A DNA stretch of 64,000 bases from Candidatus Woesebacteria bacterium (GTDB taxonomy: Bacteria > Patescibacteriota > Microgenomatia > UBA12405): NCBI GenBank assembly GCA_035402805.1, contig DAONDY010000002.1, positions 49,801 to 113,800 of the forward strand. Direction: 5' to 3'. Positions 14,235 through 64,000 of the stretch are shown piece after piece. Position numbers and translations under genes: made by a program. Every line of letters begins with the position of its first letter. Position 1 is the first letter of the stretch. Below the pieces are notes generated by a model. The model saw only the letters and a program-made list of their open reading frames with translations. It had not been told where the DNA came from and did not search any database.

Positions 14235-14798
14235 ATGAAATTGCTAATACATGCCTGTTGTGCAGATTGTCTATTAAAAATGGTGGAATCAATTAAATCA
14301 GAAAATAAATTTGATGAAATTCAGGTTTATTATTACAATCCAAATATTCATCCGAGATCAGAATATCAATCGAGATTAAAGGCAATACAATTAATGGTTG
14401 GTGATTTAAAAATGATAGTGGCTGATTGGAAACCAAGTGATTATTTTGAAGTTGTAAACCTCTCTCCGGATAAACCGGGATCTCTCCTTAACAAGGAGAG
14501 AAGTCTTCAAAAAGGGGTAAGATGTGAGAAATGTTGGAGGTTAAGATTAGAAAGGACGGCAAAGTTTGCAAAAGAAAATGGATTCGATGGTTTTAGCTCA
14601 ACATTATTAACAAGTGAATATCAAAATTCAGAAATGATTGAAAAAATTGGTGAAGAAATCTCCAAAAAATATAAAATTAAGTTTTTAATTCCTAAAAAGA
14701 TTTGTAAAAAATTAGAAACTAAGGGATTTTATAAACAAGTATTTTGCGGTTGCTGTTACTCCTTAGTAGAAAGGTTTGAAGAAAAGTTTAAGGGCTGA
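14235..14798 (+). CDS. queH: Epoxyqueuosine reductase QueH (DUF208), carrying an in-frame family A repeat insert
   Basis: LIHACCADC...CEKCWRLR...GFDGFSSTLL match DUF208/QueH Cys motifs. The repeat at 14459-14505 encodes NLSPDKPGSLLNKERSL. Confidence 0.7.
   Translation: MKLLIHACCADCLLKMVESIKSENKFDEIQVYYYNPNIHPRSEYQSRLKAIQLMVGDLKMIVADWKPSDYFEVVNLSPDKPGSLLNKERSLQKGVRCEKCWRLRLERTAKFAKENGFDGFSSTLLTSEYQNSEMIEKIGEEISKKYKIKFLIPKKICKKLETKGFYKQVFCGCCYSLVERFEEKFKG
14459..14505 (+). repeat. Family A repeat copy A3 (inside queH, in frame)
   Basis: cctctctccggataaaccgggatctctccttaacaaggagagaagtc. Confidence 0.8.
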
Positions 14799-35173: not shown

Positions 35174-36088
35174 ATGGAACAACACCCTATTCCACAGCAG
35201 ATATCATCCTACGAATTTAAACTTGTGGGAGATATGACCTTGAAACAATTTTTAAAGGCAGGAGCAGGAATAATTTTAGCAATACTGATTAATTCGACTA
35301 AATTAATAGTCTTGGTTAAATGGCCATTGATGCTTTTGTTTGGTGCTGGTGGTTTATTGTTGGCGTTTGTACCGTTCGCAGACAGACCTTTGGAGTCTTG
35401 GATAGTTTCTTTTATAAAAGCAATTTATTCACCAACGATTTATACCTATCAGAGAAAAGGTAATAAAAATTGGCTAGATTTAGATTTGACAAAAACAACG
35501 AAACAAAGCGAAGAAGATATTGTAGTTTCTAAAACTAGATCACCGTCTTTAGGAAGTAAAATAAAAGACAGTATCGCCACAATGGGGATAAAAATTAACA
35601 AGGAAGAAAGACAAACTGAAGAGACTGAAGCAACTGAAAATATAAAAACAGAGACTAAAGTAATTCCAAGACAAGCAAAAGTTGAAGAAGTTAAAAAGGG
35701 AGCTGTTAATGAAATACAAAAAGATGATTGGAGGGATCAAAAAGTTGATCTAAACTTAAAAACAGAAAAACTTGGAGCAACCGGTGAAGTTATTTTTGGA
35801 AGTATACCAATGCCAGATATTCCAGAAATTCCAAATGTAGTGGTGGGAATGGCAACGGATAGAGATGGAAAAATAGTTGATGCAGTTATTGTGGAAATTC
35901 AGGATGAAAATGGAAATCCATCAAGAGTATTAAAAACAAATTCCTTAGGGCAATTTAAAACAACTACCCCATTGGCTAATGGTAGATACCTGATAATTGC
36001 AGAGAAAGACGGTTATAATTTTGATAGAGTTAATATAGACTTGAAAGGACAAATAGTTCAACCGGTCAAAATAATTGCTAATAGTTAA
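35174..36088 (+). CDS. T4SS-associated membrane protein: N-terminal VirB3/PrgI-like TM hairpin plus C-terminal CarbopepD_reg-like beta domain
   Basis: Two adjacent TM helices (GIILAILIN..., LMLLFGAGGLLLAFVPF); C-terminus GRYLIIAEKDGYNFDRV. Lies immediately upstream of VirB4. Confidence 0.45.
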   Translation: MEQHPIPQQISSYEFKLVGDMTLKQFLKAGAGIILAILINSTKLIVLVKWPLMLLFGAGGLLLAFVPFADRPLESWIVSFIKAIYSPTIYTYQRKGNKNWLDLDLTKTTKQSEEDIVVSKTRSPSLGSKIKDSIATMGIKINKEERQTEETEATENIKTETKVIPRQAKVEEVKKGAVNEIQKDDWRDQKVDLNLKTEKLGATGEVIFGSIPMPDIPEIPNVVVGMATDRDGKIVDAVIVEIQDENGNPSRVLKTNSLGQFKTTTPLANGRYLIIAEKDGYNFDRVNIDLKGQIVQPVKIIANS

Positions 36089-36797
36089 AAATAAAATGCC
36101 AACAGATCCATTAAAAATCGCCATTAAGGGAAGCACTCAAGAACATTTACCAATAGAGGATATTATAGATGGGATTGTGATGTTAAAGGATGGTTCTTGT
36201 TCGATAGTTTTGAGCGTTTCTTCGGTCAATTTTGATTTATTATCAGAGCAAGAACAATCTGCTTTGGTTTTTGCTTATGGCGGAATTATAAATTCTCTAA
36301 ATTTTCCAATTCAAATTATTATCCAATCACACTCTAAAGATGTGAGCTCTTATCTAAAAAACTTGGAAAACATACAAGAAAAACAAGTCAATCCTCAGCT
36401 AAAAGAGAGAATTAAACAATATCGAAAATTTATAGAAGAAACGGTCAAGAAAAATAATGTGTTGTCTAAATCTTTTTATATTGCTGTTAGTTTTTCGACC
36501 TTAGAATTGGGAATCAAAAGTGGCGGAGTTAAAGGGGCAATGATGTTTTTGCCAAAAAACAAAAAACAGGAACTGCCTTTTACTAAAGAGTATATTTTAG
36601 AAAAGGCTAAAGCTAGTTTAGAACCAAAAAGAGATCATTTAGTTAGACTATTTTCAAGATTAGGACTGGAAATAGAACCATTAAACAATAAAAAATTGAT
36701 TGACCTTTTTTATAGAACTTACAATGAAGAAACAGCTATTAATCAAAAAATTCAAAACGTAAACTATCAAGCACCGGTAGTAAATGGAGAAAAATAA
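36075..36797 (+). CDS. Hypothetical T4SS-associated protein
   Basis: ORF between the VirB3-like and VirB4 genes on the same strand, with overlapping ends. Confidence 0.4.
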   Translation: MLIVKNKMPTDPLKIAIKGSTQEHLPIEDIIDGIVMLKDGSCSIVLSVSSVNFDLLSEQEQSALVFAYGGIINSLNFPIQIIIQSHSKDVSSYLKNLENIQEKQVNPQLKERIKQYRKFIEETVKKNNVLSKSFYIAVSFSTLELGIKSGGVKGAMMFLPKNKKQELPFTKEYILEKAKASLEPKRDHLVRLFSRLGLEIEPLNNKKLIDLFYRTYNEETAINQKIQNVNYQAPVVNGEK

Positions 36798-39207
36798 AAT
36801 GAAATTATTCAACAAAAAAACACCACCAGCAAATAATCCGACTCCAGTAAAAGAGAACGAAAATCAAAGAGATTTTACGTCTGGATTGGTAACAACCAAA
36901 GATATAATTGCCCCCGCCTCTTTAGAGGTAGATTTCAATCATATTAGAATTGACAATAAATATTACCGAACCTTATTTGTGGCAGCATATCCGAGATTTG
37001 TAGGGATTAATTGGCTGTCATCATTAATTAATTTTGATTCATCTTTAAACATTTCGATGTTTATTTATCCGACTGATGGAAAAGAAGTTTTAGATGATTT
37101 GAGAAGAAAAATTACGGAAATGGAGGCTGAATTGAGCACTGATATTCAAAGAGGAAGATTGATTAATCCAGCAACCCAAGCAAAATTGGAAGATGCCTTA
37201 AATTTACAAGCCAACTTGGTCAAAGGAGAGGAAAGATTTTTTCAATTCGGGCTTTATATCACGATAACCGCAGACACAGTGGCAGAATTGGATAGAACCA
37301 ATAAAAATTTAGAGGCAGCTTTAGGATCGCTTTTGATTGTGAGTAAAAGGGCCACTTTGCAAATGGAAGACGGTTTTATAACAACATTGCCAATTTGTCG
37401 AGATAAATTGTCGATTAGTCGAAACATGGATACAACATCTTTGGCAACAACTTTCCCTTTTGTATCTTCTGATTTATCCGATGATAGGGGTGTTATGTAT
37501 GGGGTTAATATGCACAATGGGTCGCTGGTTATTTTTGATCGATTTTCAATGCAAAATTACAATTCAGTAGTTTTTGCGACAGCCGGTGCTGGTAAGTCTT
37601 ATTTAATTAAACTGGAAGTGCTTCGATCATTAATGATGGGGACTGAAATTATTGTCATCGATCCAGAAAATGAATATAGAGAATTATGTGTTAGTTCTGG
37701 TGGTCAATATATTGCTTTTGGTTATGGAGAGGGTTCTAAAATTAATCCATTTGATTTAACTTTAGCCGAAGAAGAGGGTGAAAATGGTTTAAATACTAAA
37801 ATTCTATCGCTTCATAAATTATTAAAAGTAATGTTGGGAGAAATGGATCCAATCGAAGAGTCAATTATGGATAGAGCAATGATGGATACCTATAAAATGA
37901 AGGGTATTACACCAGACCCAGCAACTCAAAATAAGGAGGCACCACTAATCGAAGATTTATATAAATCACTGATTGGGATGGAAGATGAAAAGGCAAAGAG
38001 CTTGGCTGCTAGATTGGAAAAATATATCAAAGGATCTTTTGCTGGAATTTTTAACCAAAAAACAACAGTGGAGTTAAATAATAAATTTGTGGTTTTTGGA
38101 ATTAAAAATCTAGAAGACGTGTTGAGACCAGTGGCTATGCAAATTATTTTGGACTATATTTGGACGGTAGTTAAAAAGACACTTAAAAAGAGAATACTGG
38201 TGGTTGATGAGGCTTGGTATTTAATGCAACATGAAGATTCGGCAGAATTTTTAAGAGGAATTGTTAAGAGAGGAAGAAAATACTATTTAGGAGTAACAAC
38301 AATTACCCAAGATGTGGATGATTTCTTGGAAACTGCCTATGGTAAGGAAATTGTTACTAATAGCGCAATCCAAATCTTATTAAAGCAACACAGTGCAGCA
38401 ATTGATCAAATTGGAGAAGTTTTTTATCTAAGTCAAGGGGAAAAACAGTTGTTATTATCGGCAAACAAGGGAGAAGGGATATTTTTTGCTGGACAAAATC
38501 ATGTGGCGATACAAGTAATTGCGTCAGAAGATGAACATAACTTAATTACATCGAATCCTGAGGATGTGTTAAAAAAACAAAATCTGTTGGGTAACTCCAA
38601 ACCAGATAATGGTTTTAAGGCGCCGATTCAAAATCCCTCTGTCAATAAATTGACATCTCCCTTTGATGAAAGGGAGAAATTAAAAATAGAAGAAGTTAAA
38701 AAAGTTGAAGTGGTACCTAAAATTAATATTCCAGAAATAAAAACCATAGAAATTGAAAACAAAATAAATAAACCGGTTGAACTTGAAGAAAAAAAGCCTT
38801 TAGTACCAGAAAATCAAATTAAACCAGAAATAAAAGATGAATCGGTTTTATTTAAAAAACCAGAAGTGGTAGTAATTCAAAACCCCTCAGTCCCCGATAA
38901 ATCAGTGACAGCTCCCCTTGATAAAAGGGAGCCATTAAAACTAGAAATAAATAAACCTGTTGAAATTAAAGTTGAAGAAGTTAAAAATGAAATCAAAAAA
39001 CCAATTTTTATAAAAAACGAGGAAAAGAGTATTCCCCAACCACCACAATTAAGCAAAAAACCACAACCAGTGTTTGACTTAAACCCACCTGCCCCCGTCG
39101 GGGCACCCTCCCTTGAAAATGGAGGGCAAAAAAATATAAGTGAAACGAAAAAAGATAATTCTGGAAAGATGGATTATGATAAATTGTTTGGTAACGGAAT
39201 AGTCTAG
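36784..39207 (+). CDS. virB4: VirB4/TrbE/CagE-like conjugation-type ATPase with a ~200-aa repeat-derived low-complexity C-terminal tail
   Basis: Walker A VFATAGAGKSYL; Walker B ILVVDEAWYLM; 807 aa. The tail contains repeats A5, A6 and A7. Confidence 0.85.
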   Translation: MEKNKMKLFNKKTPPANNPTPVKENENQRDFTSGLVTTKDIIAPASLEVDFNHIRIDNKYYRTLFVAAYPRFVGINWLSSLINFDSSLNISMFIYPTDGKEVLDDLRRKITEMEAELSTDIQRGRLINPATQAKLEDALNLQANLVKGEERFFQFGLYITITADTVAELDRTNKNLEAALGSLLIVSKRATLQMEDGFITTLPICRDKLSISRNMDTTSLATTFPFVSSDLSDDRGVMYGVNMHNGSLVIFDRFSMQNYNSVVFATAGAGKSYLIKLEVLRSLMMGTEIIVIDPENEYRELCVSSGGQYIAFGYGEGSKINPFDLTLAEEEGENGLNTKILSLHKLLKVMLGEMDPIEESIMDRAMMDTYKMKGITPDPATQNKEAPLIEDLYKSLIGMEDEKAKSLAARLEKYIKGSFAGIFNQKTTVELNNKFVVFGIKNLEDVLRPVAMQIILDYIWTVVKKTLKKRILVVDEAWYLMQHEDSAEFLRGIVKRGRKYYLGVTTITQDVDDFLETAYGKEIVTNSAIQILLKQHSAAIDQIGEVFYLSQGEKQLLLSANKGEGIFFAGQNHVAIQVIASEDEHNLITSNPEDVLKKQNLLGNSKPDNGFKAPIQNPSVNKLTSPFDEREKLKIEEVKKVEVVPKINIPEIKTIEIENKINKPVELEEKKPLVPENQIKPEIKDESVLFKKPEVVVIQNPSVPDKSVTAPLDKREPLKLEINKPVEIKVEEVKNEIKKPIFIKNEEKSIPQPPQLSKKPQPVFDLNPPAPVGAPSLENGGQKNISETKKDNSGKMDYDKLFGNGIV
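38631..38678 (+). repeat. Family A repeat copy A5 (inside the VirB4 tail, in frame)
   Basis: aaatccctctgtcaataaattgacatctccctttgatgaaagggagaa. Confidence 0.75.
38881..38931 (+). repeat. Family A repeat copy A6 (inside the VirB4 tail)
   Basis: aacccctcagtccccgataaatcagtgacagctccccttgataaaagggag. Confidence 0.7.
39087..39130 (+). repeat. Degenerate family A-like copy A7 (inside the VirB4 tail)
   Basis: cctgcccccgtcggggcaccctcccttgaaaatggagggc keeps the two-hairpin architecture. Confidence 0.5.
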
Positions 39208-39223
39208 AGAAGATTGCTATAAT

Positions 39224-41068: not shown

Positions 41069-41087
41069 ATTAGTTTAAAATAGATAG

Positions 41088-41468
41088 ATGATTGATTTTT
41101 TAAAAAGATATTTTATCTTAATTGTTTTGGTTATTTTAGTAATAATTTTAATTTTTTTAAAGATTTTTTATGGAAACAATGATAAAAATCCTGATAATTA
41201 TTCCACAAAAATAACACCAACTGAAGTACCAGTACAAACATCTTTTGAAACCGAAAGTGAGGATATTGTTCCAGCTGAAGATTATGTATCAGTATTGCCA
41301 TATTTGGGTAAAAAAATGAAAATATTAGGAATTAAACGTCCAGGAGTTTTAGAGATAATGATTGGAGATGAAGCAGATAAAGATGAAGCTATAAAAGAAA
41401 TAGAGTTATGGAAAACAAAATATCCAACATTTAAGGAATACACTTCTGAATTTACGATTCGTAATTAA
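41088..41468 (+). CDS. Small membrane-anchored protein
   Basis: N-terminal TM followed by a soluble domain. Confidence 0.4.
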   Translation: MIDFLKRYFILIVLVILVIILIFLKIFYGNNDKNPDNYSTKITPTEVPVQTSFETESEDIVPAEDYVSVLPYLGKKMKILGIKRPGVLEIMIGDEADKDEAIKEIELWKTKYPTFKEYTSEFTIRN

Positions 41469-42587
41469 TTAGTCTTGTAATCTTACCGGCATAATAATGT
41501 GAGAAAAATCTGGATCGGATTGATCGCGGAAAAAAGCTGGAGTTAATGATTCATTCAATTCAATAATAATTTCTTGACTCTTACAAACATTTAAGAAATC
41601 CATTAAAAATTTGTAATTAAAGGCAATTTCTAAAACTTCACCATCAACTTTAGCATCAACAGTAGCTTTGTTTTGACCAATTTGGGGAGCATTGGCGGTC
41701 AATTCAATAGAATTGGATTTAATATTAAAACGAACGACATTAGCTGATTCTTTAGCAAAAACAGAAGCCATTTTAACCGCTTGAATAAATTCATCTTTGT
41801 TTAAAAAGACTTTAGTAGAAAAAGATTCAGGAACAATTCTTTGATATGCTGGATATTCGCCCTCTATAAGTCGAGAAACCAGCTCTATATCGTCTAAAAC
41901 GAAGACAACTTGATGTTCGTCGGTAGTTAAACCAATTTTGACTTTAGAGTTAGTTTTAGCGAGTTTAGTGACCTCTAAAAGGGATCTGGCGGGGATAAGA
42001 AAAGTGATTTGTTCGGTTTTTAAATCAATAGGATTAATTAATTTAATTTCTTTAAAAGATAATCTAAATCCATCAGTGGCAACTAGTTTTAGACTATCAG
42101 ACGTAAATTGACAAAGGATAGCGGTTAAAACTGGACGACTATCATCAACAGCAGCAGAAAAAGCAATTTGAGAAACGGCCTGAGTTAAAACATTTAAATC
42201 TAATTCAAAACAAGTATTAGGATTTAAAGAGGGAAAATCAGGATAATCTGTTGATGGATTAGTGGTAAAAGTTGATTCGGTTTTAGATGAAGATAAATTT
42301 AATAAATTATCACCTTTTAAAGAAATATCTATTTTTCCTGGAGTTAAATAAGAAACAAATTCAGTAATTTCACGCGAAGGAATAGTAATTGTCCCCTCTT
42401 CTTCGACTTTAGCACCAATCCAATAATTAATACTTAATTCTAAATTAGTGGCAGATAATTTAAGACGACCATTATCTGTGGATAATAAAATATTATTTAA
42501 AATAGGAAGTTGATTTTTAGAAGAAACAAATCGAGAAACGTTAGTTAGAGCAGTATTTAAATTTTCTTGTAAAAGGGAAAGTTTCAT
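41469..42587 (-). CDS. dnaN: DNA polymerase III beta sliding clamp
   Basis: 372 aa with a three-domain clamp architecture (MKLSLLQENL...); sits immediately downstream of dnaA. Confidence 0.85.
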   Translation of the reverse strand: MKLSLLQENLNTALTNVSRFVSSKNQLPILNNILLSTDNGRLKLSATNLELSINYWIGAKVEEEGTITIPSREITEFVSYLTPGKIDISLKGDNLLNLSSSKTESTFTTNPSTDYPDFPSLNPNTCFELDLNVLTQAVSQIAFSAAVDDSRPVLTAILCQFTSDSLKLVATDGFRLSFKEIKLINPIDLKTEQITFLIPARSLLEVTKLAKTNSKVKIGLTTDEHQVVFVLDDIELVSRLIEGEYPAYQRIVPESFSTKVFLNKDEFIQAVKMASVFAKESANVVRFNIKSNSIELTANAPQIGQNKATVDAKVDGEVLEIAFNYKFLMDFLNVCKSQEIIIELNESLTPAFFRDQSDPDFSHIIMPVRLQD

Positions 42588-42895: not shown

Positions 42896-44233
42896 TTAAA
42901 AAGCACTTTTAATTTGGTTAATAAGTTGACGGGTTTGTGAATTAGTGGAAAAGTCACTGTGGATTTTGTCTCGAGCATGCATAATACTGGTGTGGTCACG
43001 ACCACCAAGGAGATGTCCAACTTCTTCTAAGGGTAGGTTTATTTGGGTTAGAAGTAGATAAGCAGTAATATGGCGGGCAGTAACTAAATCTTTTTTACGA
43101 CTTTTTCCACAAAGGTCACTAGTTTTGATATTAAAGTGTTTAGCACAAACTGAAATAATATGACGAGGATTTAGTTTAGTAGTTAGTTCAAAATTATTAG
43201 TTTGTAAATTAGGATTAAAAAAGTTTTGAACAAAAGGAAGATCAATATCCCCTATTTGTTGAGCCATAGCTTGAACAGAAATTTGTTGAAGTTTACCTTC
43301 AATTTCGCGGATATTTGATTCAATATTATTAGCTAAAAATTCGACAGCTTCGGGAGTAATTTTAATTCCCTTTTCTTCTATTTTTTGACTAATTATGGCA
43401 ATCCGCATTTCATAATCGGGAAGTTGAATATCAACAGTTAAACCACCCATAAAACGAGAAACGAGACGGTCTTCAAGATGATCAATTTCACTGGGTTTAC
43501 GATCAGAAGTTAAAATAACTTGTTTACCGTTCATGTGAAGAGAATTAAAAGTGTGAAAAAATTCTTCTTGGGTATATTCTTTTCCAGCAATAAATTGAAT
43601 ATCATCAACTAAAATACAATCTAAATTACGGTATTTATCTTTAAATTGGTTCATAGTTTTGCTCTTAAGAGCATTAACCAACTCATTACCAAAAGTTTCG
43701 GCGGAGAAGTATTTTATTTTTAAATCTGGATTTTTTTTGAGAAGTTCATGACCGATAGCTTGCATTAAATGAGTTTTACCAACACCTACCCCGCCCCAGA
43801 TAAAGAAAGGATTATAAGAAAGACCCGGGTTTTTTATAATTCCTTGGGCGGCAGCATAGGCAAAATTATTACTATTACCAACAACTAAAGTGTCAAAGGT
43901 ATATTTAGGGTGAAGATTAGAGTTATTAGTTTTATTTGGATTGTAGGAAAAAAGCGGAGTGGAATTGGTATCAGTATCAGTTTTGATAATTTCTTGAACA
44001 ATAAAATTAAGGGTATTATCGGCTTTAGTTTGATTATCGAGAGCGTTTTTGATGATGTCGTAATGGCGTTTTTTATTGAAATCAACAGAATAAGTGTTGG
44101 GACAACCAATAGTGGCAATATTATTTTCAATGTTTACGAGTTGGGTTTTTAAAACAAAAGTTTGAAAGATGGCTGGTGCAAGATTAATTTTCAACTCTTC
44201 TTGAGTATTTTTCCAAATTCGGTCAATATCCAT
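42896..44233 (-). CDS. dnaA: Chromosomal replication initiator DnaA
   Basis: AAA+ Walker A GGVGVGKTHLM; Walker B ILVDDIQF; C-terminal DNA-binding domain (RHITAYLL...GGRDHTSIMHA). Confidence 0.9.
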   Translation of the reverse strand: MDIDRIWKNTQEELKINLAPAIFQTFVLKTQLVNIENNIATIGCPNTYSVDFNKKRHYDIIKNALDNQTKADNTLNFIVQEIIKTDTDTNSTPLFSYNPNKTNNSNLHPKYTFDTLVVGNSNNFAYAAAQGIIKNPGLSYNPFFIWGGVGVGKTHLMQAIGHELLKKNPDLKIKYFSAETFGNELVNALKSKTMNQFKDKYRNLDCILVDDIQFIAGKEYTQEEFFHTFNSLHMNGKQVILTSDRKPSEIDHLEDRLVSRFMGGLTVDIQLPDYEMRIAIISQKIEEKGIKITPEAVEFLANNIESNIREIEGKLQQISVQAMAQQIGDIDLPFVQNFFNPNLQTNNFELTTKLNPRHIISVCAKHFNIKTSDLCGKSRKKDLVTARHITAYLLLTQINLPLEEVGHLLGGRDHTSIMHARDKIHSDFSTNSQTRQLINQIKSAF

Positions 44234-54891: not shown

Positions 54892-54958
54892 GAATTTTTT
54901 ATAATCGGCGAATGTGCGTCGCACGTTCGATATTACAAAAAATTATAGCTTCGATTTA
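54892..54958 (+). repeat. Family C hairpin repeat copy C2
   Basis: gaattttttataatcggcgaatgtgcgtcgcacgttcgatattacaaaaaattatagcttcgattt. Confidence 0.7.
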
Positions 54959-56647
54959 TTTATTTTCCTCAAGGTTGATGATGCGCTGGAGAATGGCCAG
55001 GGAACCAAGAGTGACAGGTTCGATGCCGTTGATGCCAAGATTAGAATCGCCAAGATTTTGGAGGCTAGAATAGGGAGTATCAGAGGAATAATTAATGATA
55101 CCTAAATCAAAAGGACAATTATTTAAATCAATAATGGTGCCTTTAGGGGCTTGTTGATCATAACAACTCTCAGTGATAGCACTTAGATAAGGACCAGATT
55201 CCATTTCGATGACGGTAATATTATTTTTGAAATAATAATTTAAAAGAGCTTTGTTTTCCAAAAAAGTACCTAGAACAGAAACAGCCTTTTGGCGAGTTAA
55301 AATTGAACCTTGATTATTGATGAAAGGAAAATCATCATTAAAACAATTTTTGAAAAGATAAGAATTTTGAGTATGTTCGTCAAAAACTAATCTGGGAATT
55401 TGGATATCACCGATTTCACCGTTTAAAATAGCCGCTTTACCGAGGACATAAACGCCTTTAATACTTTTGACGTTTTCCATGATTTCAGTAAGAACATGAT
55501 AGGCAGAAAATCCTAAAGGATAGTCAATATTAAAGATTAGAGCATTAGATTTTTCAATTTTTAGGTGGTTTTTTATTTTGAGACGAGGGTCAATGTTTTT
55601 TGACTTAACTAGATTTTTAACAGGAAAAATTTGGACGGTGAGATCGAGATAATTGGGATTAGGAATAGTTAAAATTCCCAGTTTTTTTTGGAGGTCTTGG
55701 TAGGCGGTTTTGGTTTCTGGATGAGAAAGAAAATATTTGGAAGCAAAATAGATAAAATCGTTGGGATTTAAAATAGATTTTTTAGATTGAATCTGAGTCC
55801 AAATTTGATAAAGCGAAGGGTGGTCAGTTTTTAGATTAGATAAGATTTCAAATTGATGAGCCAGAGGAAAACCAGTGAAGGCGTTTAAAAGACTGTGATT
55901 ATTACTGGAAACGAAATAAATCTCTTGACGAGAAATATGAAAAGCGGGGGAAACGGTGGTGGCAATGTTTTTCCACCATTTTTGGGTGGACTTAGTGTAA
56001 TTTAACCAGGAAGCAGAGAGAAGCTGAATTTTTAAATTAAGAGTTGATTTGTAGATTTTTTTTAATTTTTTATCCCAATTTGGGCCAAGTGATGAGGTAA
56101 AATTTTGCCATTCTTTTTCGGTGACTTTAAATTTTTTATAAAAATGTTTTGACTCTAAATCTTTTTTAAAAAGTGAATAGAGAGAATAATGCTTATGAAA
56201 AAGCTGGTTAAATTTATTCCATTCAGTTTGAATAGTGATAAGGATATTAGCGATATCGTCGATATCGGAAATTGAAGCGATAAGATAGGCAAGAATATTT
56301 TTTTGGGAATTAAAATGGGCAACTCGGCGGCGACTTTTGGATTCGACTCTTTTCCAATTAGTAACATTTTTATAACCATTATCTTCAAAAATTTCTGGGC
56401 TTTGACCAAGAATTATTTTTTCAACTTCGTCAATAATTTTGGGAAGACGATCCAAAGAGTAAACGAGGGCGGAAAAATCGACTTCTTTGGGATTATCACC
56501 GAGCGGGTGAAGAAGAGAATGCATTTTTAGATGAGAGGCAGAGAGAGAATGAATGGTGACTTCGAGATTGGATTTAAGAGCACTGCGATAAGAACGAACA
56601 TGGTTTTCGATGGAAGAAATATTTGAAGTGGGTAAAAGAGAAGACAT
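54956..56647 (-). CDS. Hypothetical 563-aa protein with a C-terminal nucleoside phosphorylase/nucleosidase (PNP_UDP_1, MTAN-like) domain
   Basis: The C-terminal ~190 aa carry IGKAAILNG, IPRLVFDEH and VIEMESGPYL, which resemble the MTAN motifs GIGKVAAA / VVSD..HD / AVEMEATA. The N-terminal ~370 aa are unassigned. Confidence 0.45.
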   Translation of the reverse strand: MSSLLPTSNISSIENHVRSYRSALKSNLEVTIHSLSASHLKMHSLLHPLGDNPKEVDFSALVYSLDRLPKIIDEVEKIILGQSPEIFEDNGYKNVTNWKRVESKSRRRVAHFNSQKNILAYLIASISDIDDIANILITIQTEWNKFNQLFHKHYSLYSLFKKDLESKHFYKKFKVTEKEWQNFTSSLGPNWDKKLKKIYKSTLNLKIQLLSASWLNYTKSTQKWWKNIATTVSPAFHISRQEIYFVSSNNHSLLNAFTGFPLAHQFEILSNLKTDHPSLYQIWTQIQSKKSILNPNDFIYFASKYFLSHPETKTAYQDLQKKLGILTIPNPNYLDLTVQIFPVKNLVKSKNIDPRLKIKNHLKIEKSNALIFNIDYPLGFSAYHVLTEIMENVKSIKGVYVLGKAAILNGEIGDIQIPRLVFDEHTQNSYLFKNCFNDDFPFINNQGSILTRQKAVSVLGTFLENKALLNYYFKNNITVIEMESGPYLSAITESCYDQQAPKGTIIDLNNCPFDLGIINYSSDTPYSSLQNLGDSNLGINGIEPVTLGSLAILQRIINLEENK

Positions 56648-56773: not shown

Positions 56774-58705
56774 ATGAGTGAAAGACCATCTGCAATAGAG
56801 TTTATGAAACAAGCAGCTGAGACTGATAGATTAAAAGAAAATTCTAGAAGAACTCAGGAAATAACGAAAAAATTAGTTGAAAATAGTGGAGTTTTTGGTG
56901 GTCAAATTGAAGAAGAAAGATCACAAGTTGTTTGTCAAGAGGTTTTGGCTGTTTTTGGTTCAAAATATGAGTCGGTTAGAAAGATGGAAGAGATCGCAGA
57001 ACCAAGCAACGCAAGTAGTACGGATAGACAAAAAGCTATGGCGACAGAAAATTTAGGAGTTTTGGGAACAGCAGCTTTTAGGGCAATAAATTTTTCTTTT
57101 AAAGAATATCCGGAGGGTTTAATTACATCAGCTCTTACGGCTGAACAAATAGATGATTTTTTACCAGAGGAAATGAAGGGATTGGGGAAATTTGTGGTCG
57201 AAGCAGATAAAAAGGCAACGGACGAAGAAAGAAAGGCTATTTTTGAAATGGATTTCCCTGGTGATAAAAATAATGTTTTAAATAATGAAAACGGTAAAAA
57301 TCACGAAGCCACAAGAAGATCAGAAGAAATAGTGAGAAAAAAAACCGGTAAGGAAGATGATTCTTATACTGATGTTAGAGGTGAAATAAAAGAAATTGAT
57401 TTTAACAATAGAGATCAAGTTCTAGAGTATAGTCGTGAGTTATTGGACTATCTAGAAAATTCTAATTATCCCAGTGAAGATTTAAATATCTCTGGTGAAA
57501 CAACTAAATTATTAAACTATATTCTAAATAAAAAAATTATAGGAAAAGATGGATTTGAAATTATAAATAAGGAAATAAAGGCTAGATTGGCTTTACATGA
57601 TACTGCAATTTTTATGACTAGGGCTGGGGGAAGTTTGTCTGATAGGAGTAATGAAAGCATTCCGAACATAATGAGTAAAATTGCGGAACACGACAGATTT
57701 TTGACAAGAGATGTTATGAGATTCTTTTTTGACAATGAAGGATCTATGGGGGTACCCTTTACTAAAGCTTGGGATCTGCTTCAAGACGCAAATTTTAATT
57801 ACAGAGATATGCTAAAAAGAGCAGGATTATCGGAAGATAGAATTAATGTTAAATTTAGAGAACCGGTGACCAGTGATCGTTTTTTTGGTCAAAAATATAC
57901 AAATTATGAATACGATACAAAGGAAGCTGATAAAGAAATGGTCTATTCATATATGTTAGAACAATTAGGTGGGGGTGAAAAAGCGAGAAAAGCATTACAG
58001 CTGGCACAAAAAATGTTTGTAGCTACGGACGAGGCCTCTGTTGTTAATGTTGGCTTTATTGGTGGTGATGATTTTTCTGAAGCCATACACTTTGGTCGTT
58101 TTAGAGAAGATGATGCGAAGCCTGGGAAGACAAAAAATGCTGGCCCCGATGTACACAGAGGATGGATTAAGAGTTTGACTCCTGGTTGGCTCAGAAACTT
58201 TTCTAATATTAGTGACCCTGATAAAAGAATAAGTGCAGAGGCGATTAGGACTCATTTGGATAATCTGGAAGGTAAAAAAGATTTTTATACTTATCACAGT
58301 GTTATTGTTGGCAAAAAAACTGGTCCTTTAAAAGAGTTGCTTTTAGATAAATCGCTTAAAAAACCGGAAGAAATTGTGGAATTAGATTTTTTTAAAAGTA
58401 AAATAGATTTGTTTAATAAATTGGACAAAGATAATAAAAAAGGGTTAAGAGCATATTGGGTAGCTGGTTTGTTACAATCCAATATGATGAATAGAAGTAA
58501 TCTGTGGGATGCAGACCATATCTCTGCTCTCAGAAAAATTTTAACTCGGGAAAGCCTCACACTAAAAGGTCAGAAAGAAGAGTTCTTTTTGACTAATGAT
58601 GAATGGAAATGGGTGGTTAAAAGTATAAACCTTAACAGGTACTTTAGAATGGATTTTATTGCGGATGTTATTGGAGACATGTATAAAATAAAAAAGAAAA
58701 GATAG
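56774..58705 (+). CDS. Hypothetical 643-aa soluble protein
   Basis: ORF only; no TM and no recognisable motif. Confidence 0.45.
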   Translation: MSERPSAIEFMKQAAETDRLKENSRRTQEITKKLVENSGVFGGQIEEERSQVVCQEVLAVFGSKYESVRKMEEIAEPSNASSTDRQKAMATENLGVLGTAAFRAINFSFKEYPEGLITSALTAEQIDDFLPEEMKGLGKFVVEADKKATDEERKAIFEMDFPGDKNNVLNNENGKNHEATRRSEEIVRKKTGKEDDSYTDVRGEIKEIDFNNRDQVLEYSRELLDYLENSNYPSEDLNISGETTKLLNYILNKKIIGKDGFEIINKEIKARLALHDTAIFMTRAGGSLSDRSNESIPNIMSKIAEHDRFLTRDVMRFFFDNEGSMGVPFTKAWDLLQDANFNYRDMLKRAGLSEDRINVKFREPVTSDRFFGQKYTNYEYDTKEADKEMVYSYMLEQLGGGEKARKALQLAQKMFVATDEASVVNVGFIGGDDFSEAIHFGRFREDDAKPGKTKNAGPDVHRGWIKSLTPGWLRNFSNISDPDKRISAEAIRTHLDNLEGKKDFYTYHSVIVGKKTGPLKELLLDKSLKKPEEIVELDFFKSKIDLFNKLDKDNKKGLRAYWVAGLLQSNMMNRSNLWDADHISALRKILTRESLTLKGQKEEFFLTNDEWKWVVKSINLNRYFRMDFIADVIGDMYKIKKKR

Positions 58706-58756: not shown

Positions 58757-60406
58757 TTACCCTGATGTTTCAGTACCGTCGTCGTCGTTTCTTGATGTTG
58801 TGTCTGATGGAGCTGGCGTGCTTGCTTGTCCAGCAGTTTCTTTTCTATTTTTTCCTTTTATTGAAAGTGAAATAGCATTAGTAGCTTTGCCGGCTGCTGA
58901 ACTTGCCATTTCTTTGCCAAAAGATCCGACGCTTTTAATAGCAGTGTTACTACTGACTGCTTCACCAATGGCTTTGCCAAAGGCAGATGGTTTTAACATA
59001 AATATAGCTTCGGGAACGAGGTTTGGAAGCTTAGAAATCATAGCAAGACCAGCAAGACCAATGGCGGCTCTTATTACAGCTCCACCACCAAGAGCACCAG
59101 TGTTTAATAAGGATGGTCGCCAGAGATCTATTCCAGCAACATTGTCGATAATGTAGTTAATGAAAACGACCGCGATTAAAACGACTGGGAAAACGGCGAC
59201 TTTAGAAATTAAATTAATCAACCAAGAGGAAAATCCTGCTTTACTGTTGGGAAAAGCTCCGATACCAATCATAATGGGAGCGGTAATTATTTGGATAATA
59301 ATAGTGACATAGGCAGTGAGAAGGCCGAAAAATAATTTTATTAACCAAATAGCGATTATAATAAACAAAACAATCATTAAAACAACTCCACCGACAGCAC
59401 CAACTAACCAACTAATTGCACCGCCACCCCAATTTAAAGCCCCACCAACACCACTACCAAAAAGACCACCGAGACCACCAATTATACTGCCTAAAACTAC
59501 CTGGCCGACAAGTCCACCAAGAGCTAGCATTGATCCACCAGGAACGGTGGCATTGGCTAACATAGAAAGGGTGACAAAATCAGCATTGGCTAAATTCTTA
59601 AAATTATAAAATGAGTTAGTTCCAATGAGGTCGACTGGAATAAGATTAGCCCATTTAGCTCCAGTAAAAAGAGACGAATCTAATCCTATTCCCTTAGCAG
59701 AGAAAAAGATCATAAGAACCATACCTTGGATCCAATAGCTTAAATCGATGATTAAACCGGCAATAGCATAAGAAAAAGTGACTAAAACTAGAGAGGTAAC
59801 CAATTTGGGAATACTGTTTTGAAGGGTGATGACGGCTTGGGGACTGATTTTTACCCGGAGCATAATCATAATACCAATTACAATAAAAATAACCGAAGCT
59901 AGGGCGTAAATAACGTTTCTTAAAATTTTCCATAAGGGAAGCAATGGTTGAAGACTTTCACCAGATTTAAAAGCAACGCCTTGAGCATAAGTGGGTTTAC
60001 CTAGAAAATTATTTTTGACTTGAGCAATATACTCGACACCAGAAGCTTGCGGCTGATAAAAAGCAGTAGCCATTTTAGTGGAAGTGCCTAAAAGCCCTGA
60101 TAATTGATATTTTGATTCATCAATTGAGCCATCCTCATTGAAAGGTAGTGGTCCGGTTAAAGTGGTTAAAAGATTAACAGCGTTGGTATTCCAAGAGTTT
60201 AATTGCCAAGATTCGGCGTTATTTTGTTTAGTTTGGGCGTCTTGAGTTTGTTTGATTATATTGTTGGCGGCAAGGATTTTTTTTACAGAGAAGATCGCAG
60301 TGATGGCAATAAGGGCAATAAAAATTATTTTAGTTAGAGTATTTATACTTGGCAAAAGACGAGTATCGCGGGAGTTGAGTTTTTTAAAAATATTAGCGAT
60401 GGACAT
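58757..60406 (-). CDS. TrbL/VirB6-like polytopic T4SS membrane protein
   Basis: 549 aa with at least 8 TM helices and Gly-rich helices (GGLVGQVVLGSIIGGLGGLFGSGVGG); Ser/Thr/Asp-rich C-terminal tail; heads the operon that ends with the pilin-like array. Confidence 0.55.
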   Translation of the reverse strand: MSIANIFKKLNSRDTRLLPSINTLTKIIFIALIAITAIFSVKKILAANNIIKQTQDAQTKQNNAESWQLNSWNTNAVNLLTTLTGPLPFNEDGSIDESKYQLSGLLGTSTKMATAFYQPQASGVEYIAQVKNNFLGKPTYAQGVAFKSGESLQPLLPLWKILRNVIYALASVIFIVIGIMIMLRVKISPQAVITLQNSIPKLVTSLVLVTFSYAIAGLIIDLSYWIQGMVLMIFFSAKGIGLDSSLFTGAKWANLIPVDLIGTNSFYNFKNLANADFVTLSMLANATVPGGSMLALGGLVGQVVLGSIIGGLGGLFGSGVGGALNWGGGAISWLVGAVGGVVLMIVLFIIIAIWLIKLFFGLLTAYVTIIIQIITAPIMIGIGAFPNSKAGFSSWLINLISKVAVFPVVLIAVVFINYIIDNVAGIDLWRPSLLNTGALGGGAVIRAAIGLAGLAMISKLPNLVPEAIFMLKPSAFGKAIGEAVSSNTAIKSVGSFGKEMASSAAGKATNAISLSIKGKNRKETAGQASTPAPSDTTSRNDDDGTETSG

Positions 60407-60436: not shown

Positions 60437-61234
60437 TTACCATCCCTCTGGTCGGAGACCTTCGAGGCCATTGGCATTATTAGCATCGATATTAAGCTGG
60501 GATGAGAAAAAATTATTTAATTTAATTTTTTGACTTTCGACTGTTTTATTTTGATCTTGGTTTTGATAGGGGATTGGCTGATCCATTATTTTAATAGTAT
60601 TGGCCTTGTCGCTGCTGTCGTTGGAAATATCTTTGATTGGAGTTAAAAAGAAATCATTATAAATTCCTTCATAACAAGGTAATTCGTAATCGGGAATTGA
60701 TGGTTTGGTTTCGATTTGAGCCAAAAGATCGGCTGGAGTATCTATTTTGGTATCATTTTCATCACAGATGAATTTTTGATTGGTTTGAGTAAGATAAAGA
60801 GCTAAATCACTAATTTTTTTTTCGAGACATTCATTAGAATCGGAACAAATTTTGCCAAGGATTTTATCCTGAGCTTTACCGTTAAAAACGTCATTAATAA
60901 TTTTACCTTTAAGACAGTCTTGAGTGTTGCTGGCGGTGGTTCGAGAACCAACGTAGGAGTGTTTATTTTTATATTCATCAGAAAGAGAGATATTTCCATA
61001 ATCAGAAAAATCTTCAACTTTTTCATTTTCACCACGATTGATATCGATATCGTAAGGTTTTTCAAAGAGACTGGTGATCCATTCCCAAATTATTTCAAAA
61101 ATATTGGGATTATATTTTTCAAATTTACAAGTATAAGTAGGAGTGGAAGTGGAAGTTGAATTTTGGGCAGAAACAAAAATGGGGGTAAATAGGGGAACGA
61201 TTAAAAATAATAAAACAATTAGAAAACGTTTCAT
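60437..61234 (-). CDS. Secreted Cys-containing protein (T4SS-associated surface protein candidate)
   Basis: Signal peptide MKRFLIVLLFLIVPLFTPIFVSA; 10 Cys. Confidence 0.5.
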   Translation of the reverse strand: MKRFLIVLLFLIVPLFTPIFVSAQNSTSTSTPTYTCKFEKYNPNIFEIIWEWITSLFEKPYDIDINRGENEKVEDFSDYGNISLSDEYKNKHSYVGSRTTASNTQDCLKGKIINDVFNGKAQDKILGKICSDSNECLEKKISDLALYLTQTNQKFICDENDTKIDTPADLLAQIETKPSIPDYELPCYEGIYNDFFLTPIKDISNDSSDKANTIKIMDQPIPYQNQDQNKTVESQKIKLNNFFSSQLNIDANNANGLEGLRPEGW

Positions 61235-61623
61235 TAGCTGGGAATGATAAAGTCGGTGACATTAACACCGGTGAAAGTACCGATAAATTTGATGATTATA
61301 AAAGAAATAATAACACCAACTAGTCCAATAATAGAGGTGGTGAGAGTGGAAGTGGCTTTGGCAGTTTTTTTGGGATCGCCGCCAGAAGTAAGATATTCGA
61401 AACCACCTTTGAGAAACATAATAAAAAAAACAATTCCAGCAAAATAAACGATAACTTGGGCAACGTTGGCAAAAATACATTCAAAACCCTTAATATTGGC
61501 AATCTTGTCACCGTTGCTATCAATTTGATAACAAGAACTTTTCCAATCTTCTTGAGCGTAAATTGGAGAAGGAAAGAAAATTTTTAAGAGTGAATTCATA
61601 AGCTGATTATACAGTAAAAACAA
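61234..61623 (-). CDS. Pilin-like two-TM protein, paralog 1 (VirB2/TrbC-like candidate)
   Basis: Signal peptide-like N-terminus, TM1, loop TSGGDPKKTAKATS, TM2 (IIGLVGVIISFII..IG). Same architecture as the next five genes. Confidence 0.5.
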   Translation of the reverse strand: MFLLYNQLMNSLLKIFFPSPIYAQEDWKSSCYQIDSNGDKIANIKGFECIFANVAQVIVYFAGIVFFIMFLKGGFEYLTSGGDPKKTAKATSTLTTSIIGLVGVIISFIIIKFIGTFTGVNVTDFIIPS

Positions 61624-61672
61624 AAACCCCTCCAGTTTGTTTTGGAGGGGTTTAAAAATCAGTTTGATTTAA

Positions 61673-62050
61673 TTAGAAAGGTTTGATGGTTAGATCACCA
61701 AGGATGCTAATACCAAAGACAGTTCCAATTAATTGCATTATGGCCCAAGCGGCAAAGACAATCACTAAACCGATTAAAGCGTTAGTAATTTGAGAACGAG
61801 CGGCAGCAACTTTCTTTTCATCACCACCAGAAGTAATCCATTTAAGACCACCAATGACGAGAATGAAGAAAAAGATTAAAGAAACGATAATTAAAACTAA
61901 GCTAATAGCGCCAGAAACCATGCGGTTGACGGTTAAACCTTCAAGGTTTTTGAAAGTTCCTTCTCCAGCGGTTAATTTTAAATTTTCAGCTGCATAGATA
62001 GGAGCGGCAACTGCAGCGAACTGAATTTTTTCTTTGATTTGTTTGATCAT
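61673..62050 (-). CDS. Pilin-like two-TM protein, paralog 2
   Basis: Signal-like AAPIYAAEN; loop TSGGDEKKVAAARSQ; TM2 LIGLVIVFAAWAI..IG. Confidence 0.5.
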   Translation of the reverse strand: MIKQIKEKIQFAAVAAPIYAAENLKLTAGEGTFKNLEGLTVNRMVSGAISLVLIIVSLIFFFILVIGGLKWITSGGDEKKVAAARSQITNALIGLVIVFAAWAIMQLIGTVFGISILGDLTIKPF

Positions 62051-62102
62051 TTTAATTTAATAATTATTAATATTAACTAATTTTAACAGTAAATTTTATA
62101 TT

Positions 62103-62459
62103 TTAAATAGTTGGCCAGCTAATTTCTAAATTACCCAATCCTTCAATACCAAAAATGTAGCCAACTAGCTTGAGAAGGGCAAGGACTGAAAAAATAATAA
62201 CAACACCGATTATGGAATAAAGAAGAGCATGTTGGGCTTCTTCGTATTTTTTGGGATCACCTTGTGAAGAAATCATTTTGTAGCCGGCGAGAATAAAATG
62301 ATAAACAAAATAAATGACACCAAAAACAAATAAAACAGAGATTAAACTTTGAACAATGCTGTTAACATAGGTTTTGGGATTGTTTTGGATTTTACTTTCA
62401 CAATCGGTTAAAACTGGGTTGCAAACAATGGCGCGAACTGGTTTGATTAGATTTATCAT
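62103..62459 (-). CDS. Pilin-like two-TM protein, paralog 3
   Basis: Loop SSQGDPKKYEEAQHA; TM2 IIGVVIIFSVLAL..VG. Confidence 0.5.
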   Translation of the reverse strand: MINLIKPVRAIVCNPVLTDCESKIQNNPKTYVNSIVQSLISVLFVFGVIYFVYHFILAGYKMISSQGDPKKYEEAQHALLYSIIGVVIIFSVLALLKLVGYIFGIEGLGNLEISWPTI

Positions 62460-62461
62460 AA

Positions 62462-62821
62462 TTAATTTATTGGTTGGAAAATGGTAGTTAAATCAAAAAT
62501 ACTGTTCATACCCAATAGAGAGGCGATTAAAGCGCCTAATCCGTAGGCAATAACTATGATGGCTAATCCAAGAAGGTTGGTGGTTAATCTTTTTTTTGCA
62601 GATTCCAACTCTTTTGGATCACCTTGAGAAGATATCATAGCAATCCCCGCCATAATTATTTGAATGGTAAAGTAAATAACACCGACTAAAGTTAATATAC
62701 CAATAACAGCACTAATTATTTTTTCGATCTGACCGGCTGATCCACCAGTTGAATCAGAGATTGGTTGAATACCTGGACCCTCAAGGACATTGGCTAATAA
62801 TTTATTGTTTAATTGGTTCAT
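62462..62821 (-). CDS. Pilin-like two-TM protein, paralog 4
   Basis: Loop SSQGDPKELESAKKR; TM2 LLGLAIIVIAYGLG. Confidence 0.5.
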   Translation of the reverse strand: MNQLNNKLLANVLEGPGIQPISDSTGGSAGQIEKIISAVIGILTLVGVIYFTIQIIMAGIAMISSQGDPKELESAKKRLTTNLLGLAIIVIAYGLGALIASLLGMNSIFDLTTIFQPIN

Positions 62822-62830
62822 AAATTTAAA

Positions 62831-63151
62831 TTAAATAGTTGGATTAAGAATATCTAAACCAAGCCAGTTACCAATGGTGTTAGCAAGAATGAAAGCTGAG
62901 GCAACAATGGCGATACCAATAAGGCTTTGCCAGATAGTGGCCCAAGCTGCAGAAGTTTTTTTCTCGTCACCATTGGCGGTAAGATAGCCATAACCAGCAA
63001 GAATAATTTGAATGATAAAATAAATACCAGCGATAGTGCCGGCTAATTTGAAAATAGCGTTTAAAAACAGAAAGAGGCCGGATCCATCATCTTTAGCAAA
63101 AAATGGACTATTTTCTATTGGTGGTTTGATTTCGCCGAATATTGAAAGCAT
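62831..63151 (-). CDS. Pilin-like two-TM protein, paralog 5
   Basis: Loop TANGDEKKTSAAWAT; TM2 LIGIAIVASAFIL..IG. Confidence 0.5.
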   Translation of the reverse strand: MLSIFGEIKPPIENSPFFAKDDGSGLFLFLNAIFKLAGTIAGIYFIIQIILAGYGYLTANGDEKKTSAAWATIWQSLIGIAIVASAFILANTIGNWLGLDILNPTI

Positions 63152-63152
63152 T

Positions 63153-63497
63153 TTATAAATTTGAATTTAAAATATTAACTCCGGTAATTTTTCCTATAAT
63201 TTGGATTATGGTATAGGCGAGGAGCACTATAATAAATCCAATTGCGGCATTGGTAATAGCAGATTTGCCTTGATCGGCTTTTTTAGAATCACCTTTACCT
63301 GCGTTCATTATAAAGGTAATTCCGCCAAAAATCAAAAGAGAGAGCAGTATAATACCGGCAAGCATTAGAGAATATTTTAAAATAATCGAAATAAGAGTAC
63401 TGACACCGCCGTTTCCATAAGCGGCTTCAAGATTTTTACCTGTTCCTAGATTGATATCACCTATATTGAAGGCTAATAATGATTTCATACTTGCCAA
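63153..63497 (-). CDS. Pilin-like two-TM protein, paralog 6
   Basis: Loop NAGKGDSKKADQGKSA; TM2 AIGFIIVLLAYTI..IG. Confidence 0.5.
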   Translation of the reverse strand: MASMKSLLAFNIGDINLGTGKNLEAAYGNGGVSTLISIILKYSLMLAGIILLSLLIFGGITFIMNAGKGDSKKADQGKSAITNAAIGFIIVLLAYTIIQIIGKITGVNILNSNL

Positions 63498-63621
63498 ATT
63501 ATACTATATTTAAGGCTTAAAAAGAGGATTGATTTTAGGGAAAAACAAGAGGTTTTGTTTAGACTATTGATTGAATAAAAATGATGTTATAATACGCAAC
63601 AAATTAGTTTAAAATGAATAT

Positions 63622-64000
63622 ATGAAAAAAATAGTCGCCCCACTATTAATAGTATTTGGTATTTGGTATTTAGCATTTGGTATAAAAACTGCTGAAGCAA
63701 AAACGGTAAAGATTAACCCAACTGAAGTGGCAACGCCAACAGCAACTTTAGCGCCAACGGCAGTACCAACGGTGGCTAATATAACTGAGTTTAATGGCAA
63801 TAAAATTGATTATGAAGTGAATAAATGGAACGGTCTTAATAGTTTTAGGTGGATGATTAAATTGGCAATTGACAGAGGAGTATCGACAAACACAATAGTC
63901 TTACTATTATTATTGCCGTTAATTGCAACCTTAGTGTCGTTTTTACATTATGTGGTGGGTTTGTCGGGTTATGGAATTTTTATGCCAACAATGATTGCAG
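63622..64000 (+). CDS. Secreted/membrane protein, N-terminal part; the gene runs past the window end
   Basis: ATG at 63622. MKKIVAPLLIVFGIWYLAFGIKTAEA signal peptide, a Thr/Pro/Ala-rich linker, then hydrophobic helices. The ORF is open to the window end. Confidence 0.5.
   Translation, partial: MKKIVAPLLIVFGIWYLAFGIKTAEAKTVKINPTEVATPTATLAPTAVPTVANITEFNGNKIDYEVNKWNGLNSFRWMIKLAIDRGVSTNTIVLLLLLPLIATLVSFLHYVVGLSGYGIFMPTMIA

Follow-up and report, generated by a model that had tools for sequence, protein, structure and literature searches.

An ordered array of six VirB2-like pilin genes in a Patescibacteria genome, probably encoding distinct subunits of a monoderm-type type IV secretion system

Six adjacent genes on the minus strand of a 64 kb stretch of the metagenome-assembled genome (MAG) of an ultra-small Patescibacteria bacterium (Woesebacteria/Shapirobacteria), called the window here and the basis of all coordinates, encode small pilin-like proteins and span positions 61234-63497. 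With a probability of roughly 0.7, we regard them as encoding six distinct, non-redundant VirB2-like pilin subunits of a chromosomal, monoderm-type Patescibacteria type IV secretion system (T4SS), within the module, by the mechanism and in the roles proposed below.

Such arrays have already been described (PMC12102498, PMC10633639, PMC12857230), and the window locus is a further instance, although the original prediction, made from this DNA, had treated it as new. The basic finding is thus not novel; what remains so is the fixed six-subunit architecture and its regulatory signature. A T4SS is essential for epibiotic growth of the sole genetically tractable Patescibacterium. A second class is now seen to hold its pilin array as a fixed set of six conserved subunits, one of which appears to bear the regulatory signature of a major subunit. 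The array is coupled to a VirB6-like gene overlooked by sequence profile searches with hidden Markov models (HMMs). Annotators may take this gene as a candidate for the VirB6 that is 'missing' from Microgenomatia. The 'variable array' becomes a set of testable predictions about subunit stoichiometry, assembly order and the host-adapting partner. The supposition that the organism is an epibiont is likely to be right, since the MAG is from Patescibacteria; a 'Candidatus Woesebacteria' protein matches its 549-amino-acid (aa) VirB6-like protein at 100% identity.

The six pilin genes

Inspection of open reading frames (ORFs), hydropathy and alignment bore out the six minus-strand ORFs of 106-129 aa, with their two-helix and G-D-x-K-K layout, that had been described from the sequence. 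In coordinate order from 61234 to 63497 the proteins are 129, 125, 118, 119, 106 and 114 aa long. Positions are numbered here in the direction of transcription; bit scores are for the Pfam families PF18895 (T4SS_pilin) and PF04956 (TrbC/VirB2), whose gathering thresholds are 26.6 and 27.9 bits, respectively.

63153..63497, minus strand: pilin position 1, PF18895 (35.4 bits), two transmembrane (TM) segments
62831..63151, minus strand: pilin position 2, PF18895 (30.9 bits) with a weak TrbC match (PF04956, 19.7 bits)
62462..62821, minus strand: pilin position 3, PF18895 below the cutoff (22.7 versus 26.6 bits), aligns with its paralogues
62103..62459, minus strand: pilin position 4, PF18895 (42.5 bits) with a weak TrbC match (PF04956, 18.7 bits)
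61673..62050, minus strand: pilin position 5, PF18895 (43.0 bits), candidate major subunit
61234..61623, minus strand: pilin position 6, PF18895 (36.2 bits)

The intergenic gaps from position 1 to position 6 are 1, 9, 2, 52 and 49 nt, and position 5 is bordered by the only sizeable spacers of the array. Every pilin has exactly two strongly hydrophobic segments (Kyte-Doolittle, sliding window 19). Pairwise identity among the six is 26-30%; their N- and C-terminal tails vary from paralogue to paralogue, while the loop residues G, D and K, together with three further glycines, are invariant in the alignment. The loop motifs TSGGDPKK, TSGGDEKK, SSQGDPKK, SSQGDPKE, TANGDEKK and NAGKGDSKK were all confirmed. 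The statement that TM2 ends in (I/L)IG holds for four of the six, the exceptions being 62103-62459 (LVG) and 62462-62821 (LIA). An HMM made from the six pilins found no seventh copy in the 64 kb window. The true starts of positions 1 and 6 are probably ATG 63488 (giving 111 aa) and ATG 61599 (giving 121 aa), because both orthologue alignments and conserved TATAAT-N6-9-ATG motifs favor these shorter starts.

Conservation of the array in related genomes

In a scan of GTDB species genomes, relatives of the 549-aa protein are encoded in 223 stretches, most of them from Shapirobacteria. Eighty of these loci (L001-L080) were fetched, and counts of gene number and order use the 60 with at least 5 kb of upstream sequence. 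Exactly six pilin genes occur in the same order in 54 of the 60; two loci have eight, three are cut by contig ends or runs of N, and one has none. This comparison of paralogue number had been proposed as a check in the original prediction. The best match of the pilin at any one position in another genome was the pilin at the same position in 3102-3306 of about 3306 comparisons, with more than 98% of best matches positional. Median identity to the window copy at the same position is 46-59%, compared with 40% for the VirB6-like gene and about 32% between positions within a genome; for position 1 the orthogroup comprises 57 related loci, with a median of 52%. The ratio of nonsynonymous to synonymous substitution rates (dN/dS), calculated for the window against three relatives, is 0.05-0.39 for every pilin. 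Because number and order are fixed, best matches are positional, identity exceeds that of the VirB6-like gene and dN/dS is low, the paralogues are best read as ancient, ordered, individually constrained and position-specific orthogroups under purifying selection.

Position 5 is the most conserved pilin (median identity 59%, dN/dS 0.05-0.19). It is also the only position ever duplicated, with three copies in locus L078 and two in L018.

Three loci have unusual arrangements. In L018 (2040-11569) the middle gene and the VirB6-like gene are each present in two copies. L076 has two additional pilin-like ORFs (14369-15039) about 9 kb downstream of the canonical six. L070 has a VirB6-like gene, but no pilin in the 10 kb upstream of it. 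The module also occurs in many public MAG records (L003, L004, L008, L009, L074, L080 and others) with the titles 'uncultured Gammaproteobacteria', 'Candidatus Methanoperedens', 'Clostridia' or 'Bacteroidales'; these contigs are probably mislabelled or mis-binned.

Pilin family, predicted fold and conserved residues

Five of the six window pilins pass the PF18895 threshold, and the sixth (62462-62821), at 22.7 bits, is a clear paralogue. In a larger set of 144 orthologues and paralogues, drawn from the window and 23 related genomes and scanned at E≤0.01, PF18895 matches all 144. PF04956 is the sole recurrent second family, found in 19 of the 144 with a best E value of 1.5e-6, and any other family is found in at most five. 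On these profile scores the relation to TrbC/VirB2 is distant similarity, not membership. All six pilins have sub-threshold matches to NCBIfam NF045849, the 'Mbov_0395 pilin-like conjugal transfer protein' of a Mycoplasma integrative and conjugative element (ICE).

AlphaFold2 modelling of position 5 (61673-62050) predicts a helical hairpin with helices at residues 34-73 and 78-111, a four-residue SGGD loop and a predicted local distance difference test score of 83-92 in the core. PF18895, the recurrent PF04956 matches and the hairpin support the description of the proteins as pilin-like T4SS proteins of VirB2 type. The label 'VirB2-like' as used here rests on architecture, weak profile similarity and context, not on membership of the VirB2 family.

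For positions 2-5, the loop residues G, D and K are retained by 89-100% of orthologues. In position 6, two cysteines of the N-terminal extracellular part, Cys31 and Cys49, are kept by 97-98% of orthologues. The window sequence hinted at a similar pair in position 4, but its conservation across orthologues is below 50%, and the idea was dropped. As regards a cleaved N-terminal leader, positions 4-6 share a P-(I/V)-x-A motif ahead of TM1, but the leaders are too weakly hydrophobic for a TM or signal call.

Predicted promoters, terminator and transcription units

Predicted regulatory elements are located before positions 1, 5 and 6 and after position 5.

63498..63503, minus strand: -10-like box TATAAT, putative promoter P1, 9 nt before ATG 63488 (predicted near-leaderless start)
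62080..62088, minus strand: extended -10-like box TGTTAAAAT, putative promoter P5, predicted by promoter scan in the 52-nt spacer before position 5
61624..61653, minus strand: intrinsic-terminator-like hairpin with a stem of 11 bp and a T-run behind it, 19 nt past the position 5 stop codon
61606..61611, minus strand: -10 box TATAAT, putative promoter P6, 6 nt before ATG 61599 (predicted leaderless-type start of the downstream unit)

All four recur in related arrays. TAnAAT-N5-10-ATG is found at the position 1 start in 36 of 58 arrays, against a background of 5% of ATGs. TAnAAT-N5-8-ATG is found at the position 6 start in 51 of 58 (with a spacing of N6 in 33), and the TAnAAT-to-ATG arrangement is present at positions 2-5 in just 0-6 of 58 arrays. 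The spacer before position 5 contains the motif TGnTAnA[AC]T in 45 of 57 related loci, versus 1 of 57 for the position 5 coding sequence. The hairpin RNA has a folding energy of -20.3 kcal/mol (z -3.9), and none of 200 shuffled sequences was equally stable. In 49 of 57 loci an equivalent GC-rich hairpin and T-run come after position 5, with stem sequences that differ; after the other positions the count is 2-10 of 57. An Rfam search over 58-64 kb gave only a sub-threshold chance match, on this hairpin.

The single operon that had been proposed is probably too simple, given the conserved terminator hairpin after the fifth gene and the -10 boxes before the first, fifth and sixth. The elements suggest three transcription units, one containing genes 1-4, one containing gene 5 alone with its own terminator, and one containing gene 6 with the Cys-rich and VirB6-like genes. 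The TATAAT boxes 6-9 nt before the starts of positions 6 and 1, kept across genomes, suggest that leaderless or near-leaderless mRNAs are used in this lineage.

The Cys-rich protein and the VirB6-like protein

Two genes follow position 6 on the same strand.

60437..61234, minus strand: secreted Cys-rich protein, 265 aa, with a Sec signal peptide and six Cys; a short, domain-less form of a modular family
58757..60406, minus strand: VirB6-like polytopic membrane protein, 549 aa, directly after the Cys-rich gene

Both are as the original prediction described them, except that it had placed the pilins downstream of the VirB6-like gene; in the direction of transcription they are upstream of it.

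The Cys-rich protein of the window has no Pfam or NCBIfam match. Nearly every related locus has a Cys-rich protein with a signal peptide, of 240-1093 aa and with 2-25 Cys, encoded between the sixth pilin and the VirB6-like gene. BLASTP with the window copy finds it in 11 of 57 loci, and an iterated HMM connects 47 of 58. Longer relatives carry recognizable modules, namely an SLT lytic transglycosylase (7 of 58), SpoIID (8 of 58) or a GH5 cellulase (2 of 58). The middle gene looks more like a VirB1-type or wall-breaching accessory than like VirB5. The idea that it encodes a VirB5-like tip adhesin was dropped, as evidence of VirB5 is lacking and the relatives carry the SLT, SpoIID and GH5 modules. 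The highest nonsynonymous divergence (dN) in the module is that of the Cys-rich gene. This gene is the rapidly adapting component, and the pilins are not.

The 549-aa protein has at least seven hydrophobic segments and a 109-aa loop after TM1, and in 59 of the 60 loci a pilin array precedes the gene of its family. This agrees with the VirB6/TrbL layout of a polytopic protein with a large extracytoplasmic loop, encoded beside pilins. At the sequence level, neither Pfam nor NCBIfam nor the PDB has a match to the window protein. Weak matches to PF04610 (TrbL/VirB6) were found in 3 of 72 family members, one of 30 at E 0.0019 and two of 42 at E 7.2e-6. An exhaustive search with the family profile gave 3459 clusters at E≤1e-3; the best 150 matches are all within the family, and annotated VirB6 proteins were not reached. 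In a Foldseek search with the predicted fold, the R388 stalk chain is the top match (probability 0.87, E 0.18), the TrwI/VirB6 chains of 7o3v rank third and fourth, and DotA is likewise among the leading solved structures. We consider the protein VirB6-like by predicted fold, with moderate confidence.

The T4SS core module

The energising components are encoded elsewhere in the window, in a plus-strand module at 35174-41468 that is directly followed by dnaN (41469-42587) and dnaA (42896-44233).

35174..36088, plus strand: PrgI/VirB3-like protein, 304 aa, PF12666 at 26.5 bits versus a cutoff of 27; SEML1_0010 of S. epibionticum is in the same length class
36075..36797, plus strand: TrsD-like protein, 240 aa, resembling a split-off VirB4 N-terminal domain, with sub-threshold matches to the CD1110 VirB4 N-terminal and TrsD (NF041427) families
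36784..39207, plus strand: VirB4-like ATPase of the CD1110 (monoderm) family, NF045971 at 386.7 bits versus a cutoff of 325, PF19044 at 111 bits
39224..41068, plus strand: NlpC/P60 cell-wall hydrolase, PF00877 at 39.4 bits, adjoining VirB4 in the slot of PrgK (VirB1-like) in pCF10

Some 22 kb separates this core from the pilin module, with VirB4 and the start of the array about 18 genes apart. The second-best NCBIfam family of the VirB4 is the Mycoplasma ICE VirB4 (Mbov_0397). The two VirB4 families, CD1110 and Mycoplasma ICE, are consistent with a Patescibacteria clade related to the mating-pair formation (MPF) class MPF-FATA. Together with the NF045849 matches of the pilins, this second-best family hints that the VirB2-like proteins arrived with a monoderm (FATA-type) system and not by co-option from a diderm.

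Comparison with known systems

Quinonero-Coronel et al. (2025, Microb Genom; PMC12102498) described 441 Patescibacteria 'VirB2 arrays' of 2-11 genes with about 25% identity within arrays. The arrays are especially abundant in Microgenomatia, and the genomes have a monoderm-type VirB4, often near dnaA. The window falls within the definition used in that study (at least two PF18895 or PF04956 genes in tandem or one gene apart, in a genome with VirB4), and its tandem pilin genes, identity level, class and monoderm VirB4 near dnaA all fit. It differs in two respects. That study treats array size as variable and proposes versatility toward host strains, whereas this lineage has a fixed, ordered six with its own predicted internal promoter and terminator; it also finds VirB6 homologues scarce in Microgenomatia, whereas in the window a gene with a VirB6-like predicted fold comes directly after the array. 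A distribution of array sizes was not found in the supplement of that paper.

A close parallel in another class is Southlakia epibionticum ML1 (Saccharimonadia), whose pilin array is highlighted in a 2025 review. Its T4SS cluster is SEML1_0006-0019, and the six PF18895 genes, SEML1_0014-0019, were each scored essential (Wang et al. 2023, Cell, PMC10633639). As in the window, six tandem PF18895 pilins (103-185 aa) adjoin a VirB6-like gene near dnaA and dnaN, and the cluster also holds VirB4, a PrgI protein of about 300 aa and hydrolases. The widest intergenic gap in the S. epibionticum array is between the fifth and sixth pilin genes, where the window has 49 nt. Unlike the window, S. epibionticum has a VirB6-like gene of 1088 aa in divergent orientation, and its pilins and core are contiguous, not 22 kb apart.

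In the Enterococcus plasmid pCF10, the VirB2-like PrgF is encoded near the VirB6-like PrgH and has been modelled and tested as a pilus that assembles on PrgH (ter Beek et al., bioRxiv 10.64898/2025.12.18.695078). PrgF resembles the window pilins as a small two-TM protein with a short charged loop, with one gene between it and the downstream VirB6-like gene, and the VirB4 of both systems is of NCBIfam family CD1110. The two window modules mirror the pCF10 order prgF(B2)-prgG-prgH(B6) and prgI(B3)-prgJ(B4)-prgK(hydrolase), but about 18 genes apart. However, pCF10 has one pilin, PrgF is 75 aa long and has no N-terminal extension, and sequence or profile similarity is not detectable. As a further difference, pCF10 serves plasmid conjugation and has both a relaxase and a coupling protein.

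The diderm MPF-T systems of R388 and Agrobacterium also have a helical-hairpin pilin, and the 549-aa protein has a solved VirB6 platform among its best structural matches. Sequence similarity to them is below threshold only, and outer-membrane components are absent from the window. They have a single major pilin and VirB5, while the middle gene of the window has no VirB5 signal and is nearer VirB1 by the lytic-transglycosylase modules of its relatives.

In Pap/chaperone-usher and type IV pilus operons, the gene for the abundant subunit is followed by a terminator or attenuator, and several conserved low-copy subunits are encoded in a fixed order. These pili have unrelated folds and assembly machines, and the analogy covers regulation and stoichiometry only.

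Proposed subunit roles and alternative explanations

The following proposal for polymerisation, major and minor roles, transcription units and cargo is built on the observed family membership, conservation, gene order, selection and predicted fold. Together with the Cys-rich and VirB6-like proteins, the six pilins would form a module for assembly of a pilus or conduit, apart from the energising core. By analogy with R388 and pCF10, the pilins would enter the membrane as hairpins of two helices whose Lys-rich G-D-x-K-K loop is cytoplasmic. Next, they would be extracted and polymerised on the VirB6-like platform in a VirB4-driven process, as for R388 and for PrgF on PrgH, with the loop lining the lumen. 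Position 5 is probably the major subunit, because its conservation is the highest, no other position is ever duplicated, and it has a conserved extended -10 box and terminator hairpin; its own promoter and terminator would allow production in excess. The other five would be low-copy subunits with initiation, adaptor or tip roles. The variable Cys-rich protein, and not the pilins, would be the likely site of host- or wall-specific adaptation. A heteropolymeric pilus, one of the options in the original prediction, fits the distinct conserved orthogroups.

Several results weigh against this proposal. Neither the 549-aa protein nor any of the pilins reaches the threshold of the corresponding classical family. 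The former has no match to PF04610, and for PF04956 two pilins score 18.7 and 19.7 bits and four have no match. Family profiles of the pilins and of the 549-aa protein gave only noise against PDB sequences, and hhalign comparisons of family profiles with single PrgF, PrgH, TrwL and TrwI sequences gave probabilities of at most 2%. Foldseek with the pilin monomer found no significant match in the PDB (best E 1.5, an archaeal conjugation pilus at rank 29), a search that is uninformative because a two-helix hairpin is too generic. In several of the comparisons that gave dN/dS values of 0.05-0.39, dS is near saturation. The promoters and terminator are predicted from motifs, and the DNA is AT-rich; the major and minor roles are assigned by analogy with other pilus operons. 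Finally, a T4SS pilus has never yet been seen on any Patescibacterium.

A more specific version of the proposal is possible but doubtful. The structure might be a compositionally ordered filament or conduit of one major and five minor VirB2-like subunits, with host specificity placed in the hypervariable, hydrolase-bearing Cys-rich partner. The set of six would then be older than the split between Microgenomatia and Saccharimonadia, because both have six genes with a wide gap before the sixth. To our knowledge, every characterised VirB2 pilus is a homopolymer, with or without VirB5.

Among the alternatives, the one that survives best, though it is unlikely, is that the proteins are T4SS components that do not polymerise. 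They would remain in the cytoplasmic membrane, surrounding the VirB6-like protein and VirB4 as a hetero-oligomeric ring or channel lining, or would make only a very short stub across the thin wall. No pilus has been observed in Patescibacteria, nor by microscopy in Gram-positive T4SSs, and six fixed subunits suit a defined stoichiometric complex as well as they suit a filament. The two-TM hairpin is also a generic membrane module that the fold search could not discriminate. However, the architecture and loop chemistry match those of VirB2-like proteins whose loop lines the lumen. The predicted promoter and terminator around one member suggest a large stoichiometric excess, as for a polymer subunit, and the wall-cutting modules in relatives of the neighboring secreted protein point to a structure that crosses peptidoglycan.

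It is improbable that the array supplies alternative major pilins that can replace one another, amplified and diversified for antigenic variation or for different host strains. The original prediction had offered this as an option, and PMC12102498 suggested it with Bartonella and Anaplasma as analogues. The organism probably depends on a host, the paralogues differ in their terminal tails, and their 26-30% identity is in line with the published average of 25%, all as such variants would have it. The comparative data nevertheless largely refute this explanation. Gene number and order are fixed in 54 of the 60 informative genomes, best matches are overwhelmingly position-to-position (3102-3306 of about 3306), each orthogroup is more conserved than the VirB6-like neighbor (46-59% versus 40%), and dN/dS of 0.05-0.39 indicates purifying selection. 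The rapidly diverging gene of the module is the Cys-rich one, and the essentiality of each of the six S. epibionticum homologues implies that they are not redundant.

That the genes encode small proteins unrelated to type IV secretion (holin-like, bacteriocin-immunity or generic two-TM proteins), with a misleading Pfam name, is very improbable: the family name is prediction-based, scattered weak matches to unrelated TM families occur, and the array is 22 kb from virB4 with no VirB4 within 10 kb in any related locus, but TrbC/VirB2 is the sole recurrent secondary family (19 of 144 versus at most 5 for any other), all six pilins match NF045849 below threshold, the array is invariably linked to a VirB6-like gene in related loci with enough upstream sequence, and the homologous S. 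epibionticum array is within a T4SS cluster beside a VirB6-like gene, with essentiality in common.

Neighboring genes

The unit is bounded by a convergent gene (56774-58705, plus strand) and by a divergent 7TM_transglut gene that begins at about 63622. The divergent gene (63622-64000, plus strand) continues past the end of the window, and the part inside it encodes a signal peptide and the beginning of a 7TM_transglut domain (PF14402, 25 bits). In 27 of 80 related loci the convergent gene, whose 643-aa product has no family match, is syntenic with the pilin/VirB6-like module. Beyond it, a DUF6909 protein (54956-56647, minus strand; 530.8 bits) is syntenic with the module in 40 of the 80.

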